DNA from: Actinomycetota bacterium
GTDB lineage: Bacteria > Actinomycetota > Humimicrobiia > Humimicrobiales > Humimicrobiaceae
Direction of reading: 5' to 3'
Assembly (NCBI GenBank): GCA_051744345.1
Contig: JBNJCW010000003.1
Coordinates: forward strand, 196-64,195
Length of the DNA: 64,000 bases
How positions within the stretch are numbered: the first letter of the stretch is position 1; every line of letters begins with the position of its first letter. Shown here in pieces: positions 59,406 to 63,996 of this stretch. The notes beneath the pieces are model-generated. The model had not been told where the DNA came from, did not search any database, and was given only the letters and a program-made list of their open reading frames with translations. A program made the position numbers and the translations under genes.

Positions 59406-59927
59406 CTATCTGAATATAAAATACACTTCATAAATAATTCCAAAAACAAAAAGGAAGCATATCAGAGCCACGACACTGCCAATGATCATGCGTTTTCTGT
59501 GCTTGTTTTTTACAAAATACTCTCCAAGGCTTAGGGCTAAAACCCGGTAAAGAGCTTCAACTGATACCAGGATATAAACATCTAATGGAATGCTTCTGCC
59601 ATGGCGTATAATGCCTGTAAACAGGAATACCGCCAGGAAAAAACCAGTAATAAAACCTACCGGAATTGCCGCTTTCAGCCAGCCTAAACCAAAATAACCA
59701 AAAGTAGAAACCAGGTTCCCGAAGAAAACCACCAGTAAAATATAGGACATGCTCATCCCGGTTTCATATTCATGAATACCAAAAAAGGTTTGAAGGATTT
59801 TAAATCTTTCTATAAGTGTAACAGACTGCTCCCTGAATATATAAAAAAAACCGTAACCTGCAACTGCTCCCACAGCAGCAGCAGCCAAAACCAGCCCAAA
59901 TATCTTATGATACTCCTTCATTATCAT
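59406..59927 (-). CDS. Polytopic membrane protein (possibly SpoIIM/DUF95-like)
   Basis: 173 aa with 4-5 TM helices. It overlaps the 3' end of the HD-GYP gene by 4 nt. Confidence 0.4.
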   Translation of the reverse strand: MIMKEYHKIFGLVLAAAAVGAVAGYGFFYIFREQSVTLIERFKILQTFFGIHEYETGMSMSYILLVVFFGNLVSTFGYFGLGWLKAAIPVGFITGFFLAVFLFTGIIRHGRSIPLDVYILVSVEALYRVLALSLGEYFVKNKHRKRMIIGSVVALICFLFVFGIIYEVYFIFR

Positions 59928-61165
59928 AACCTGCTTTCAAGTATTTTAACCATGGCGTCAGTAACCTCTGCATCAAACTGAGTCCCCGCATTTTTTTTAA
60001 GCTCGCAGATGGCCTCCTCTTCAGTTAAAGCCCTGGTATAGGGCCTGTTTGTGGTCATCGCATCATATGAATCCGCAACACAGAGTATTTTAGCAAACAG
60101 CGGTATCTTATCCCCTTTTATCCCTCTGGGATATCCGCTCCCATCAATTTTTTCATGATGGTAAAGTATAGCTGTAGCAGCATCTTTTAAGAATGTTATC
60201 TCTTTTACTATCTCATAGCCAATTTCAGGATGTTTCTTAACTTCTATCCAATCCTTATCACTCAATGAACCAGGCTTATTAAGTACGGAAAGATCTACCT
60301 GAATCTTCCCGATATCATGCAAATTAGCCAGGTTTTTAATAATTTCTATATCATATTCATTTAACTTCAGCTCCCTTGCTATTTCTTCACTGTACTGGGC
60401 TACCCTTATGGAATGGCCGGCTGTATAGACATCCTTTGCCTCCATTATCTTTACAATCTGTAGAATACTGCTTAGTAAAGCCTTTCTTTCCTTAATCCTC
60501 AACAGGTAAGTATACTGGGCTATTATCAGGGGCAGGGAAGTAAAAATAAGGGTAAAAGGCCCATAGGTGCTGTACAAAAAAGAAATAGCTATAGCCATTA
60601 GGGTTAAAAATACATGAAATGGAATAAGCCAGGCAAAATTAAAAATCCATACATTGAAAAATCCGACAGACTCACTTAATGAGATTGCCCCCGTAGTTAG
60701 TATGGTATTAAAGAAGAAGAATACAAATGCACATAAAAAAATTGTTCCGATATTTGTAACAGATAAAAAGTTATTACTGTCTCTAGTAAAAAGCCTTTCA
60801 AAAATTATGCTGGAAAGTCCTATAGAAACCAGGTATTGCCCGGCATTGAAAAGATGTTTGTAGTAGGGGACTTTTTTTAAACAATCTTTAATATTGAAAA
60901 TAGATATTAAAGTAACTACAGCTGCAGTAGCTGGACCATAGATTATAAGGCTGGCCAGTGTTATTCCGAAATTAACTGATACGCTGCCAGTTTTTGGGAG
61001 TGGTGATGAAAGGTTGTCGGATGCAAAAACCAAAAACCCAAACAAAACCACTCCCAACCAGGAAACATTGCCATATTCATACAGGATATATCCCAACAAA
61101 AATATACCTATGAGAAATACGGCATACACATAAAACTGTAACGCCAGTTTCTTAGTATCGCTCAC
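59924..61165 (-). CDS. 7TM-receptor-linked HD-GYP phosphodiesterase (7TMR-HD type)
   Basis: 413 aa. An N-terminal polytopic domain of about 230 aa is followed by HD and HHEKIDGSGYPRG (HD-GYP) motifs. The TGGTATAAT-type -10 at about 61189-61197 is an extended -10. Confidence 0.8.
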   Translation of the reverse strand: MSDTKKLALQFYVYAVFLIGIFLLGYILYEYGNVSWLGVVLFGFLVFASDNLSSPLPKTGSVSVNFGITLASLIIYGPATAAVVTLISIFNIKDCLKKVPYYKHLFNAGQYLVSIGLSSIIFERLFTRDSNNFLSVTNIGTIFLCAFVFFFFNTILTTGAISLSESVGFFNVWIFNFAWLIPFHVFLTLMAIAISFLYSTYGPFTLIFTSLPLIIAQYTYLLRIKERKALLSSILQIVKIMEAKDVYTAGHSIRVAQYSEEIARELKLNEYDIEIIKNLANLHDIGKIQVDLSVLNKPGSLSDKDWIEVKKHPEIGYEIVKEITFLKDAATAILYHHEKIDGSGYPRGIKGDKIPLFAKILCVADSYDAMTTNRPYTRALTEEEAICELKKNAGTQFDAEVTDAMVKILESRL

Positions 61166-61228
61166 TAGTTTCCCTTTTTGATAAATATAAAAAATTATAC
61201 CAAAACAAGGCGATTTAATATAATTTTT

Positions 61229-61300
61229 CTACCACCTTACTGTTGAGCAAATACCTATAAGAGAACCAAGTGCTATCAGTATTCTCATTAACTTCCTCAT
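61229..61300 (-). CDS. Small hydrophobic peptide ORF (23 aa, MRKLMRILIALGSLIGICSTVRW), copy 1 of 3
   Basis: GGAGGTGA lies 6 nt upstream of the ATG, and a CATAAT -10-like element lies upstream. Copy 1 encodes the same peptide as copies 2 and 3 despite 4 nt differences, all synonymous third-position changes. Confidence 0.55.
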   Translation of the reverse strand: MRKLMRILIALGSLIGICSTVRW

Positions 61301-61341
61301 AACTTTTCACCTCCATTCTTCCTGTATTATGCATACCTTTT

Positions 61342-61413
61342 CTACCACCTTACTGTTGAGCAAATGCCAATAAGTGAGCCAAGTGCTATCAGTATTCTCA
61401 TTAACTTCCTCAT
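61342..61413 (-). CDS. Small hydrophobic peptide ORF, copy 2 of 3
   Basis: Identical peptide, with its own GGAGGTGA ribosome-binding site and CATAAT element inside the 113 bp repeat unit. Confidence 0.55.
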   Translation of the reverse strand: MRKLMRILIALGSLIGICSTVRW

Positions 61414-61454
61414 AACTTTTCACCTCCATTCTTCCTGTATTATGCATACCTTTT

Positions 61455-61526
61455 CTACCACCTTACTGTTGAGCAAATGCCAATAAGTGAGCCAAGTGCT
61501 ATCAGTATTCTCATTAACTTCCTCAT
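61455..61526 (-). CDS. Small hydrophobic peptide ORF, copy 3 of 3 (promoter-proximal)
   Basis: Identical to copy 2, with a GGAGGTGA ribosome-binding site. Its upstream region is unique rather than repeat-derived. Confidence 0.55.
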   Translation of the reverse strand: MRKLMRILIALGSLIGICSTVRW

Positions 61527-61726
61527 AACTTTTCACCTCCCCTGATAGCTAAATTTACAATTGTTCACCTTGATACCAGGCTTTTAAAATCTCAACATAT
61601 TCCACAAGATTCTCATAAAACACCAAAACCAATATGGTAATTATTAAAAATACTATTATGACTATTGACATTTTTTCCCAAATGCTAAGCCTTCTTTTTT
61701 TTGGTTCTTTCTCATACATTTTGCTT

Positions 61727-62119
61727 TCATACTGTATTTTTGGTTCTTTTTTCTATGAATTCCTGCAAACTGTTCTGGGGTATCCTCCAGGAACTCCTAC
61801 CCTCCCTTATCTTAAAACCCTTAAGCTCCCCCGTTTTAAGTAAGTTCCATATATTATCAACAGATAACTTGAGTATTTTTGCTACCTGCTCAGCGGTATA
61901 TAATACTGGTGCTTTTTCCTGTGCTGCTTGGGATAATTCTTGCTGGCCAACAAAACCATTAAGAAATTCTTCCAAGGCATCTTCGCTAATCCTTATTGCT
62001 TTACCCAGCCTTATTGCTGATAATTTTTTTAGCATAACCATCCTTATGATCTCCGATTCACTTATACCAACCAGTTCCGAAACTTCTTTGATGGTGTAAA
62101 GTTTTTTTTCATTTTCCAT
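61727..62119 (-). CDS. DNA-binding protein with two tandem excisionase/MerR-like (HTH_17-type) helix-turn-helix domains
   Basis: 130 aa. The two repeats are YTIKEVSELVGISESEIIRMV...IRLGKAIRI and YTAEQVAKILKLSVDNIWNLLKTGELKGFKIREGRSSWRI. Its start abuts the stop of the ATPase gene. Confidence 0.6.
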   Translation of the reverse strand: MENEKKLYTIKEVSELVGISESEIIRMVMLKKLSAIRLGKAIRISEDALEEFLNGFVGQQELSQAAQEKAPVLYTAEQVAKILKLSVDNIWNLLKTGELKGFKIREGRSSWRIPQNSLQEFIEKRTKNTV

Positions 62120-62120
62120 A

Positions 62121-63149
62121 TTAAATAGTCATTTCTCTTATAGCGGATATCTCTGCCTGCATATCCAGAAAACCAAAAAGGCCGTCTTTTCTCTCTATAA
62201 AAGATATCTCTCCCAAAACAGGAACATCCAGAGCATCCCTTAAGCCCTGTGTCCGGTTATTTTTCTTGCCAACCTTATTTATAACTGCAAACTTTTTCTG
62301 GGTTTCTGAAAGGAATTTATTAAATTTGTTTATCCTTTGAACAGCTGCTTTTTCTTCAGTCAATAATAGAATGGATTTAGTGGAAAGGTTCAAAGCCTCT
62401 AATACATGGTTATCATACCGATTTGGCAGATCACAGATAATATAGCCGTATTTCTTTCTTGCTGAATAAATAACTTCATAGAGCATGTTTAAGTCAAAAT
62501 TGTCACTTTGTTCAATGCTTAGAGGCGGCTGAAGTATATCTATATTAATTTTATTTAAGCTAATTATTGATTCCCACAGAGAAGCTGGGCTGTCTTCTAC
62601 AGCTTCTATAAAAACACTTAAATTGGGGACCATGGGTATATTAAGCCTGCTGGCAAGGTCTCCCTGCCCTTCACAGAAATTCAAATCAATTAAAAGTACT
62701 TCTACATTTTTCATCTTGCCTATCAGATATGCTATATTGAAAGCTATACTGGTTTTCCCAACTCCCCCTTGAACAGAATAGATAGATGTTACCTGCTGAT
62801 TTACTACCTTATATTTTTCTTTTTCATCTTCGAGGTTATCGATTAAATCAAGCACCCGTGCTAATTCATCCGGGTTACCAATTTCGTTTACCTGTATTCC
62901 GGCAGCATTGTTTTTGTTTCTTCCTGAAATTATTAATTCACTGGTAGTATTAGCCTGTATAAAATGCCTTACTTCCCTATAATTAGGTACATTCTCTTCT
63001 AGTATTATATAATCTGGCATATACTCCTGTATTATTGGTTCTATATTATTCATTCCAGTTATAAAAATCATATTAAAATTTTTAAGGCTTATATTTCTAC
63101 CTGTCTCAGTTATTTCCTTATTTTCTGTGATTATTATTATGAATTTCAA
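62121..63149 (-). CDS. ParA/MinD-superfamily ATPase with an N-terminal receiver-like domain of about 110 aa (CpaE/TadZ-like)
   Basis: 342 aa. SVQGGVGKTSIAFN is the deviant Walker A. The N-terminal region is receiver-like but has no obvious phospho-acceptor context. Confidence 0.6.
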   Translation of the reverse strand: MKFIIIITENKEITETGRNISLKNFNMIFITGMNNIEPIIQEYMPDYIILEENVPNYREVRHFIQANTTSELIISGRNKNNAAGIQVNEIGNPDELARVLDLIDNLEDEKEKYKVVNQQVTSIYSVQGGVGKTSIAFNIAYLIGKMKNVEVLLIDLNFCEGQGDLASRLNIPMVPNLSVFIEAVEDSPASLWESIISLNKINIDILQPPLSIEQSDNFDLNMLYEVIYSARKKYGYIICDLPNRYDNHVLEALNLSTKSILLLTEEKAAVQRINKFNKFLSETQKKFAVINKVGKKNNRTQGLRDALDVPVLGEISFIERKDGLFGFLDMQAEISAIREMTI

Positions 63150-63380
63150 TATTTTATGTTTTATTATAGTATTTTATCATTCTTTACTTTTTAATACTTG
63201 TAGAATAATTATATTACTTTGGTTAATATAATACATACACAGTTTTAATTTGTCAATTTGGTACTTTATGGCATATAAATATTTATTATTGGTTATAGCC
63301 TTATGTTTAACCATTAATAATGCTAAATAGTTAATAAAGGCTATAATATCTTATTAAGATGGTTATGAAGGTTTTTTTGA

Positions 63381-63650
63381 CTAATTACTTAGTAGTTTTC
63401 TTTTAATATTAACTGTAGAGGGATATTTTATTGATATTTTCTTGTATCTGGACTTTTTACCAGACACTATAGCAATATTGCTTTTGGGTATTTTCAATTT
63501 GTCTGATATAAGCCTAACGAGATCTTTGTTGGCCTCCCCTTTTTGTGGCGGCGAGGCTACCCTTACCTTGATATAATCCCCATGTAATCCATCAATATTG
63601 TTAACAGATGAACCAGGTTTAACTAAGAAATTAATAATTTCACTGTTCAT
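63381..63650 (-). CDS. DUF167 (YggU-like) protein
   Basis: The conserved core is ...FLVKPGSSVNNIDGLHGDYIKVRVASPPQKGEANKDLVRLISDKLKIPKSNIAIVSGKKSRYKKI. The start was taken at the internal Met at 63650 rather than the tracked 63695. Confidence 0.6.
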   Translation of the reverse strand: MNSEIINFLVKPGSSVNNIDGLHGDYIKVRVASPPQKGEANKDLVRLISDKLKIPKSNIAIVSGKKSRYKKISIKYPSTVNIKRKLLSN

Positions 63651-63996
63651 CAGTTTTAAAAAAATCGTCAATAATATCCGGATTAGCGATGTCAATATTC
63701 TTTCTCTTCCTGTCCATAGTGAAATCTTTTTCTTCTTTTTCCTCTTCTATTTCTTCTTTCTCTTCTTCTGTTTCCGGCTCTTTTGCTTCTTCTGTTTCCT
63801 CCGGCTCTTTTGCTTCCAATTCTTCTGAAGATTCCTGCCTGCCTTGTTCTGGTTCTTCAGCTTCCGGATTACTTTCTTCCTGCCCAGACTCCTCTGTCAT
63901 TTGCACTGATTCTTCTGGTTCAGCCTTTACGCCTTCTGATATTTCAAATCCTTCCATATTCTTTAAAGACTCTTCCAGATATTGTTTAAGTCCCAT
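63640..63996 (-). CDS. Hypothetical highly acidic (Glu-rich) protein
   Basis: 118 aa ORF ending ...NIDIANPDIIDDFFKTDEQ. It is low-complexity E/K-rich with no recognisable domain, and its ATG at 63996 lies near the window end. Confidence 0.3.
   Translation of the reverse strand: MGLKQYLEESLKNMEGFEISEGVKAEPEESVQMTEESGQEESNPEAEEPEQGRQESSEELEAKEPEETEEAKEPETEEEKEEIEEEKEEKDFTMDRKRKNIDIANPDIIDDFFKTDEQ

Follow-up and report, generated by a model that had tools for sequence, protein, structure and literature searches.

The tandem array

The window analysed here is a stretch of 64,000 nucleotides (nt) from an Actinomycetota bacterium of the Humimicrobiaceae (GenBank assembly GCA_051744345.1, contig JBNJCW010000003.1, positions 196 to 64,195). 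Near one end it carries a tandem array of very short open reading frames (ORFs), followed by a gene for a membrane-bound HD-GYP protein (Table 1). The product of the short ORFs is referred to here as the microprotein. The array was detected by Tandem Repeats Finder with a period of 113 bp (2.8 copies, 98% matches, score 604). On the minus strand each unit is made up of a 41-nt spacer containing a Shine-Dalgarno (SD) sequence and a 72-nt ORF. The three ORFs, copies A, B and C, are each 23 codons long and encode the same peptide, MRKLMRILIALGSLIGICSTVRW. The SD sequence, GGAGGTGA, is positioned 6 nt 5' of the ATG in every case. Three 113-bp repeats with a common 23-amino acid (aa) peptide and this SD spacing had been described in the initial annotation, which was made from the sequence alone, and both the repeat analysis and the reading of the ORFs agree with it. 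A 35-nt probe taken from the ORF start has 3 matches, against 0.00 expected from 100 shuffles.

Copies A and B, together with their 41-nt spacers, are identical in nucleotide sequence. Copy C differs from them at ORF positions 36, 39, 45 and 48. As had been reported, all of these are synonymous third-position changes; the synonymous share of the possible substitutions in this ORF is 24.7%, giving a probability of 0.0038 that four out of four would be synonymous. At all four positions copy C agrees with the copies present in the closest relative (locus L188). Overlapping ORFs of 38–46 aa in the +1 frame are not conserved, this frame being open in 0 of 29 orthologous sequences.

Table 1. Features of the microprotein locus and its surroundings in the window
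Feature	Position	Strand	Evidence and remarks
173-aa multi-pass membrane protein (mem173), no family	59406..59927	-	4-nt overlap of its start with the HD-GYP stop
MASE9-HD-GYP membrane c-di-GMP phosphodiesterase (predicted), 413 aa, GTG start	59924..61165	-	Pfam and motifs; co-oriented, 63 nt past the array
Spacer between array and HD-GYP gene, 63 nt	61166..61228	-	Most conserved non-coding stretch of the locus
Tandem array	61225..61540	-	Tandem Repeats Finder and sequence inspection
Microprotein gene copy C, HD-GYP-proximal	61229..61300	-	SD 61307-61314; 4 synonymous differences from A/B
Microprotein gene copy B	61342..61413	-	SD 61420-61427; nucleotides identical to copy A
Microprotein gene copy A, HD-GYP-distal, 23 aa MRKLMRILIALGSLIGICSTVRW	61455..61526	-	SD 61533-61540; hidden Markov model (HMM) score 56.5 bits
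54-aa single-pass membrane ORF (mem54)	61555..61719	-	Adjoins the array on its upstream side; no family in Pfam or NCBIfam
Protein with 2 x HTH_17	61727-62119	-	Pfam
ParA/MinD-like ATPase	62121-63149	-	Pfam

A microprotein gene under purifying selection

The pattern of variation in the ORF is that of a coding sequence. Over 29 distinct orthologous nucleotide sequences the entropies of the three codon positions are 0.64, 0.40 and 1.41, with third positions varying freely. The mean proportion of synonymous differences (pS) is 0.74, compared to 0.235 for nonsynonymous differences (pN), and the median ratio of nonsynonymous to synonymous change (dN/dS) is 0.26 for moderately diverged pairs; synonymous sites are near saturation. 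In the closest relative there are four nucleotide differences in the ORF, all synonymous, while its 41-nt inter-copy spacer is merely 68% identical. Of the sequence 5' of the ORF only the SD is kept, the flanks having diverged. The length of 23 codons, or 24 in one clade with a terminal Gly, holds in all homologues examined except for degenerate extra copies in multi-copy arrays (L029 and L030). No frameshifted homologue was found among the sequences examined. The selection on the peptide that had been proposed from the three copies is therefore borne out, and is far stronger than those copies alone indicated. These comparisons show that the array ORFs are a genuine protein-coding gene under purifying selection.

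Inspection of the peptide shows basic residues at the N-terminus, then a single hydrophobic helix with a small-xxx-small face, and Val-Arg-Trp at the C-terminus. The hydrophobic core is 17–18 residues long and is predicted from its sequence to be a transmembrane (TM) helix, with the small residues arranged as G12-x3-G16-x3-T/S20. Over 83 distinct variants, L8, L11, G12 (Ala in 11), S13, L14, G16, I17, V21, R22 and W23 are near-invariant. Position 18 is Cys in 38 of these variants and Ala in 43.

Neither Pfam nor NCBIfam gave a family for the peptide, even at E ≤ 10. When 10 variants of it, among them extended forms and the overlapping 46-aa frame, were looked up as exact matches in 15 billion proteins, there were 0 hits, and the DNA pattern of the microprotein had zero matches in viral contigs. 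No description of the peptide, or of its pairing with MASE9, was found in the literature that was searched. As to its kind, the microprotein would represent a new, previously unannotated family of small transmembrane partner proteins.

The partner enzyme

An HD-GYP gene directly after the array and in the same orientation had been noted in the initial annotation, and this is supported by the Pfam matches to HD_5 (PF13487; 2.1e-36) and HD (7.9e-22). The membrane domain had been called a seven-transmembrane receptor. It corresponds instead to MASE9 (PF20972; 6.7e-09, 36.4 bits against a cut-off of 24.3), which is described as having 8 predicted TM segments. Residues H283 D284, H336 H337 E338 and G344 Y345 P346 are invariant in 21 orthologues. 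With a MASE9 domain and the HD, HHE and GYP motifs, the protein is predicted to be a phosphodiesterase of cyclic dimeric guanosine monophosphate (c-di-GMP). Its gene has a weak SD, and there are hundreds of orthologues with 64–89% identity to the protein.

The definition of MASE9, as a sensor domain with 8 TM segments, is due to Galperin and Chou. Its external loops are short and poorly conserved. Ligand binding within the membrane was proposed by its describers, with no ligand known. Only one member has been studied, HdgA from Streptomyces, and no phenotype was obtained for it ('activating signals missing'). A small upstream ORF is mentioned neither in the description of MASE9 nor in the HdgA study.

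Linkage and copy number within the lineage

Orthologous loci were obtained from metagenome-assembled genomes (MAGs) of Candidatus Humimicrobiales/Humimicrobiaceae in a scan of one genome per species. The same scan found an ortholog with 44% identity in Candidatus Hakubella thermalkaliphila, which belongs to a separate Actinomycetota order. In 25 of the 25 assessable loci, those in which sufficient upstream sequence is retained, HMM search identified one to three co-oriented microprotein ORFs upstream of the HD-GYP gene, and no such ORF elsewhere in those loci or in the 64-kb window. The ParA-like and HTH_17 genes are absent upstream of the pair in L010, L013, L026, L027 and L029, where the microprotein and HD-GYP genes are retained together despite the loss of synteny with ParA, HTH_17 and mem54.

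A metagenome scan with a degenerate DNA pattern for the peptide, made without regard to context, returned 106 stretches, 104 of which are true members. The next gene could be tallied for the 88 loci with at least 300 nt of downstream sequence. In 70 of these it is HD-GYP, starting within about 60–115 nt. In 11 it is a small gene with no assigned function, p77, often followed by hspR-dnaK-hsp20-dnaJ. The remaining 7 include two arrays in which genes for secreted proteins replace HD-GYP, as well as copies near transposases or an AbiE/methyltransferase island. The two arrays are at L185:2514-2719, which has two copies and the usual ParA, HTH and mem54 genes upstream, and at L120:1063-1155. With secreted-protein genes in the position of HD-GYP, rearrangement has separated the pair in at least one population.

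The copy number of the microprotein gene is polymorphic, from 1 to 4. Metagenome loci have one copy in 72 cases, two in 28, three in 3 and four in 1, counts in which contig ends may hide some copies. The closest relatives, with HD-GYP proteins 80–89% identical, have one or two copies with a period of 113–115 nt. Two loci with an identical HD-GYP protein, itself 89% identical to that of the window, differ by exactly one 113-nt unit, there being two copies at L188:2190-2515 and one at L189:1300-1515. Copy number is therefore polymorphic within a population. In three-copy arrays of the Hakubellales type (L027:3647-3718 and L029:3489-3551) the middle copy has an ATA start or is degenerate, which suggests the decay of some duplicates.

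The pair in other phyla

Twelve loci with full-length distant relatives of the enzyme (28–37% identity) were inspected, 11 from Chloroflexota (Chloroflexia, Limnocylindrales and Anaerolineaceae) and one from a Bacillota MAG. All 12 have a co-oriented ORF 50–100 nt upstream, and MASE9 was confirmed by Pfam in the distant enzymes that were checked. In the 11 Chloroflexota loci this micro-ORF is exactly 29 codons long, with the pattern M.xR..R...(TM)..LAGGAGVRP[VLIF] and codon-position entropies of the coding type (1.05/0.78/1.52). As a control, 34 HD-GYP loci without a MASE9-type N-terminus were searched and none has such an ORF, whereas the same automatic criteria find it in 10 of the 12 loci in which inspection finds it in all. 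In seven further loci an SD-preceded ORF of 24–29 codons ends 44–111 nt before the MASE9-HD-GYP gene. In total, a co-oriented upstream ORF of 24–29 aa is present in 19 of 19 distant MASE9-HD-GYP loci checked.

The seven further micro-ORFs are from cultured Natranaerobius thermophilus (MNKVVLILVTLLGVVLAGGASFTWGGGG), Thermovenabulum gondwanense (MRINDTLVKIILALFALVLAGGANLKLGP), Desulfosporosinus nitroreducens (MSKLLKAISVLVTLVLAGGATFKW) and Thermovorax subterraneus (MKINATLLKILLALMALVLAGGANYRLG), and from MAGs of Caldatribacteriota (MKINKAKLISFLISVMALLLAGGAKFKW), Ignavibacteriales (MSRIYRVVLALLALVLAGGANFQWR) and Peptococcaceae (MKAKFFKVASALLALLLAGGAGWRW). That of T. gondwanense, 29 aa in length, already existed as a gene call, without a family. 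The distant ORFs share a design of a basic N-terminus, one TM helix, a small-residue motif and a [FVW]-[KR]-[WP] tail. Endings such as ..AGGATFKW and ..AGGAGWRW bridge the ..IGICSTVRW of the window and the ..AGGAGVRPV of the Chloroflexota. The number of residues past the conserved basic residue varies between lineages. Gene order in the other phyla is a ~215-aa protein with no assigned function, the micro-ORF, MASE9-HD-GYP and DUF5317.

When an HMM of the 'LAGGA' peptides was run against 7,309 six-frame ORFs, Humimicrobiia peptides made up 21 of the top 25, and in the reverse search a true micro-ORF came first. Taken with the Actinomycetota lineage of the window, the loci represent Chloroflexota, Bacillota, Atribacterota and Ignavibacteriales, the taxon labels of MAGs being those given by their submitters. 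The pairing of a microprotein gene with MASE9-HD-GYP recurs in four to five phyla. A peptide-plus-membrane-receptor pair, which had been suggested from the window alone, is supported by this conservation of the gene pair (25/25, 70/88 and 19/19, against 0/34 in the controls).

Several further elements were seen at the distant loci. In the Chloroflexota a conserved 10-codon mini-ORF, MEPN(K/Q/R)(N/G)TK(A/V/I/S)(W/F), ends 0–12 nt before the 29-aa micro-ORF (L037:3677-3709, L055:3686-3718 and L065:3390-3422, with equivalents in L036, L038, L045, L053, L054 and L067). It may be a leader upstream ORF (uORF) or a conserved RNA motif. The Chloroflexota spacers between micro-ORF and HD-GYP (L036-L067, for example L037:3800-3865) contain a conserved TTAGTAC box and a strong hairpin, AGTATGGAGGCGCC-N4-GGCGCCTCCATACT. 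Compensatory changes are seen in this hairpin, the 5' arm of which includes GGAGG and the 3' arm CCTCC, and a few nt separate its end from the HD-GYP start codon. In the Bacillota, Atribacterota and Ignavibacteriales loci (L187, L193-L197 and L035; for example L193:1225-1450) a leader motif GAGCGAAGCG...TAGCGG precedes the micro-ORF. Leader and ORF are together enclosed by exact inverted repeats of 10–16 nt (shuffled mean ~7 nt), followed by a T-run. Such repeats could form a closing stem over a long range, mark a processing site or make up a split terminator. A long-range inverted repeat of this kind around the unit is absent from the window, where there are 7-mers at chance level only. Rfam searches of the Chloroflexota and Bacillota loci found nothing relevant. 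On the N. thermophilus plasmid (L187; NZ_CP144220.1, 33269-35067) MASE9-HD-GYP and DUF5317 are each annotated as two overlapping pieces, which may reflect frameshifts or sequencing errors, and the 28-aa micro-ORF (L187:2185-2268) is unannotated.

Spacers and transcription of the array

Each repeat had been seen initially as a self-contained mini-gene with a -10 element of its own, CATAAT. This sequence is indeed present, at 61439-61444 and 61326-61331; a promoter role is not supported, as it was not picked up by the promoter scan and is not conserved in any other array, that of the closest relative included. Across arrays the inter-copy spacers are 30–102 nt long, 30–56 nt in most, and the SD is the only element that they have in common.

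The array and the HD-GYP gene are separated by a spacer of 63 nt that is 98% identical in the closest relative and 92–94% identical in more distant ones; in these relatives, the closest included, the microprotein ORFs are 74–94% and the inter-copy spacers 64–72% identical. This 63-nt spacer contains TGGTATAAT (61194-61202), of the extended -10 type, and TATATTT (61183-61189), and TGnTATAAT with CTATATTT recurs before HD-GYP in most Humimicrobiia loci. The spacer can also fold, in the minimum free energy structure, into an AT-rich hairpin that is followed by a T-run. It may act as the HD-GYP promoter or operator, as a terminator after the array, or as both. Given a conserved promoter-like element in this position, the array and the enzyme may be separate transcription units. 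At its other end the array begins 28 nt past the mem54 stop codon, so co-transcription with the ParA-like, HTH_17 and mem54 genes is plausible. A strong promoter-like site (63228-63256; TTGACA-17-TATTAT, 11 of 12) is located ahead of the ParA-like gene.

Proposed role of the microprotein

The favoured reading, held with moderate confidence, is that the microprotein is an in-membrane partner or modulator of the MASE9 phosphodiesterase, in effect an accessory subunit, with the array amplified for dosage. It is suggested by the conservation of the pair across four to five phyla and by a small-residue helix face that fits helix packing. Each of the three tandem copies would be translated individually to give a single-pass 23-aa membrane protein. 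Its basic N-terminus would face the cytoplasm, with Val-Arg-Trp as an interfacial anchor, and its helix would pack within the bilayer against the TM bundle of MASE9. Packed in this way it may set the activity or stability of the phosphodiesterase. The triplication would be a recent and unstable dosage amplification, arising by unequal recombination or gene conversion. More microprotein would thereby be made relative to the enzyme, whose gene starts with GTG after a weak SD and is probably transcribed from a promoter of its own within the 63-nt spacer.

Several points weigh against this reading. Everything that favours binding or an effect on activity comes from comparative genomics. Alignment of the Humimicrobiia and Chloroflexota peptides by hhalign gave a probability of 1.4%, so that homology is not demonstrable in this way, and individual HMM E-values across phyla are 0.03–6. 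The described MASE9 examples of Thermotoga and Streptomyces are not among the 19 distant loci. The possible separation of array and enzyme into two transcription units is a further point. Lastly, microprotein units that stand alone, away from HD-GYP, and the arrays of L185 and L120 imply that the need for the microprotein is not confined to cis, and there may be further or other partners for it.

A related reading, which can be put forward only tentatively, is that the microprotein is itself the in-membrane signal that is read by MASE9. Microprotein abundance, set by tandem dosage and by the stand-alone copy, would on this reading be turned into altered c-di-GMP by the HD-GYP enzyme.

There are several known systems to which a small membrane partner can be compared. 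MgrB and SafA, which act on PhoQ, are likewise single-pass proteins of <50 aa that tune the cytoplasmic output of a multi-pass or membrane-anchored sensor from within the membrane, as is proposed here, and that were missed by annotation. MgrB shares no sequence similarity with the microprotein, its gene is not beside phoQ, and part of the protein functions in the periplasm and contains cysteines. The partner in the window is also a MASE9 c-di-GMP phosphodiesterase rather than a histidine kinase, and the microprotein gene is linked to its partner across phyla and tandemly amplified. KdpF (KdpFABC), CydX (CydABX) and AcrZ (with AcrB) are single TM helices of 20–50 aa, and KdpF and CydX are encoded beside the large membrane protein that they bind, with synteny kept over long distances. 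The partners of these three are, however, transporters or oxidases, and their genes are single-copy with no separately regulated stand-alone copy. The psm-alpha operon of Staphylococcus also consists of several tandem ORFs of ~20 codons with their own SDs that were long missed by gene callers. Its products, the phenol-soluble modulins, are amphipathic, secreted and Agr-controlled, whereas the window peptide is a TM helix that is hydrophobic throughout, with anchors on either side, and has an enzyme with a membrane sensor as its counterpart.

Stand-alone units and a possible general membrane function

Outside the window, the lineage has stand-alone units of the microprotein gene. These have a perfect extended -10, TGTTATAAT, ~135 nt 5' of the ATG, a conserved leader of ~125 nt, and a terminator-like hairpin past the stop codon. 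They often adjoin the p77 gene (75–77 aa, with no Pfam family) and the hspR-dnaK-hsp20-dnaJ operon. Two subgroups were distinguished by their leaders, subgroup A at L083, L095, L096, L107, L129, L132, L136, L142, L146 and L173, and subgroup B at L088, L119, L145, L160 and L168 (for example L119:7015-7356, minus strand). About a dozen ORF positions, all of them synonymous, distinguish the two, and the peptide is invariant. RNAalifold predicts pairing of the SD and AUG with a box in the leader, TTCATAGCA..ACCT; the share of paired cells is 87%, compared to 48–63% when slid, and three of the pairs show compensatory changes. Rfam searches of the stand-alone units gave no family match. The stand-alone transcript is independent and probably gated at translation, and the leader could be a thermosensor-like or other kind of translational control.

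These units favour an alternative in which the microprotein has a general or stress-related function, affecting membrane properties or another partner, with its position beside MASE9 reflecting co-regulation or shared physiology. An extended -10, leader and terminator-like hairpin of its own beside p77 and heat shock genes or elsewhere, a leader that pairs over the SD and AUG in a manner that suggests conditional translation, and the L185 and L120 arrays that have no adjacent HD-GYP would all be accounted for. Co-regulation alone would not easily maintain adjacency over such distances in 19 of 19 distant loci, against none of 34 controls, and outside the Humimicrobiia only the linked copy was found, in a search covering the loci themselves. 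This alternative is therefore regarded as rather unlikely.

Toxin-antitoxin, leader peptide and pheromone readings

The initial annotation had likened the array to tandem type I toxin loci, in which each unit would encode a membrane-damaging peptide curbed by an antisense RNA. Ibs/Sib, Ldr/Rdl and Zor/Orz do resemble it in having tandem units with a tiny hydrophobic ORF and a good SD, and several copies per genome, here both tandem and dispersed and with no annotation. A leader that masks the SD and AUG, found in many type I toxin mRNAs, is present here in the stand-alone copy only, and a few stand-alone copies lie near transposases or the AbiE/methyltransferase island. The array itself does not behave in this way. 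Its RNA is no more structured than shuffled sequence (z = +1.57), and the centroid structure leaves the SDs unpaired. The scan for promoters and terminators found 12 promoter-like sites where 15.7 would be expected; no plus-strand site recurs from unit to unit, and the array contains nothing that resembles a terminator. Inter-copy spacers that are mostly 30–56 nt and not conserved beyond the SD would leave no room for a conserved antisense gene, and third codon positions in the ORF are free to vary. Rfam found nothing relevant in the window, and there was no match to an antitoxin or toxin-associated RNA in either the window or the stand-alone units. Known type I loci have a patchy distribution and are not vertically kept beside one partner gene across phyla, as the microprotein gene appears to be. 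A type I toxin array is accordingly considered improbable.

It is also quite improbable that the ORF is a cis-acting leader peptide or uORF, the translation of which controls HD-GYP expression through the hairpin that follows. The arrangement of a small ORF, then a hairpin and T-run before HD-GYP in the window, with a hairpin in the Chloroflexota and Bacillota/Atribacterota loci as well, is suggestive of such a leader. It is the whole peptide that is conserved as a TM helix, however, rather than a few regulatory codons. Tandem multiplication, and stand-alone copies with unrelated genes downstream, would not be expected, and since the peptide is also made from an independent transcript it is not merely a leader of HD-GYP. 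The length of the tail past the basic residue varies, unlike that of known termination-arrest peptides, and the Chloroflexota stop codon is ~45 nt before the hairpin. A chain of 23 aa ends inside the ribosomal tunnel and so cannot report membrane insertion.

An exported or processed signal precursor (SHP/PrgQ/ComS-like, AgrD-like or derived from a lipoprotein signal) sensed externally by the HD-GYP receptor, akin to the secreted peptide that had been offered as an alternative at the outset, is very improbable: the size and shape resemble those of short hydrophobic pheromone precursors and an ATP-binding cassette (ABC) exporter pair is divergently upstream of some stand-alone copies, but there is no AgrB, Eep/PptAB-type, radical-SAM or peptidase-ABC gene in the neighbourhood, the sequence is conserved across orders with no diversification into pherotypes, and the external loops of MASE9 are short and poorly conserved. 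A lipobox or thiolactone in 'ICSTVRW' was considered and rejected, as about half of the variants have Ala in place of Cys18.

Neighbouring genes

The mem173 gene is usually kept downstream of HD-GYP in the Humimicrobiia, where it takes the place that DUF5317 has in other phyla. A relationship between the two was considered and rejected, no similarity being detected. Upstream, mem54 has 44–51% identity by tblastn to sequences in L003, L008, L015 and L028, and is a called gene of 52 aa in close relatives. Its conservation extends to part of the lineage, and it does not belong to the invariant microprotein/HD-GYP pair. The ParA/CpaE-like neighbour raised the possibility of a Flp/Tad pilin; this was rejected, there being no G/XXXXEY motif, no match to a pilin family and no CpaF, TadB or TadC neighbours. 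At the window edge (63381-63996, minus strand) an acidic ORF fragment of 118 aa corresponds to a gene with a DivIVA Pfam match in relatives (L188/L190), next to which is DUF167/YggU. A DivIVA-type gene and DUF167/YggU upstream place the locus just downstream of genes of the division-cluster type.

Implications

The microprotein reveals an annotation gap, in that a functional small protein appears to have been missed by gene callers, and rapid change in the copy number of its gene has been demonstrated. The analysis provides a concrete candidate interactor for the functionally orphan MASE9 domain, so that an open question becomes testable. Experiments are feasible, as the pair is present in cultured N. 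thermophilus, T. gondwanense, D. nitroreducens and T. subterraneus. If MASE9 does read the microprotein as its signal, a widespread orphan sensor domain would have a peptide ligand that is genetically encoded, and this in four to five phyla.

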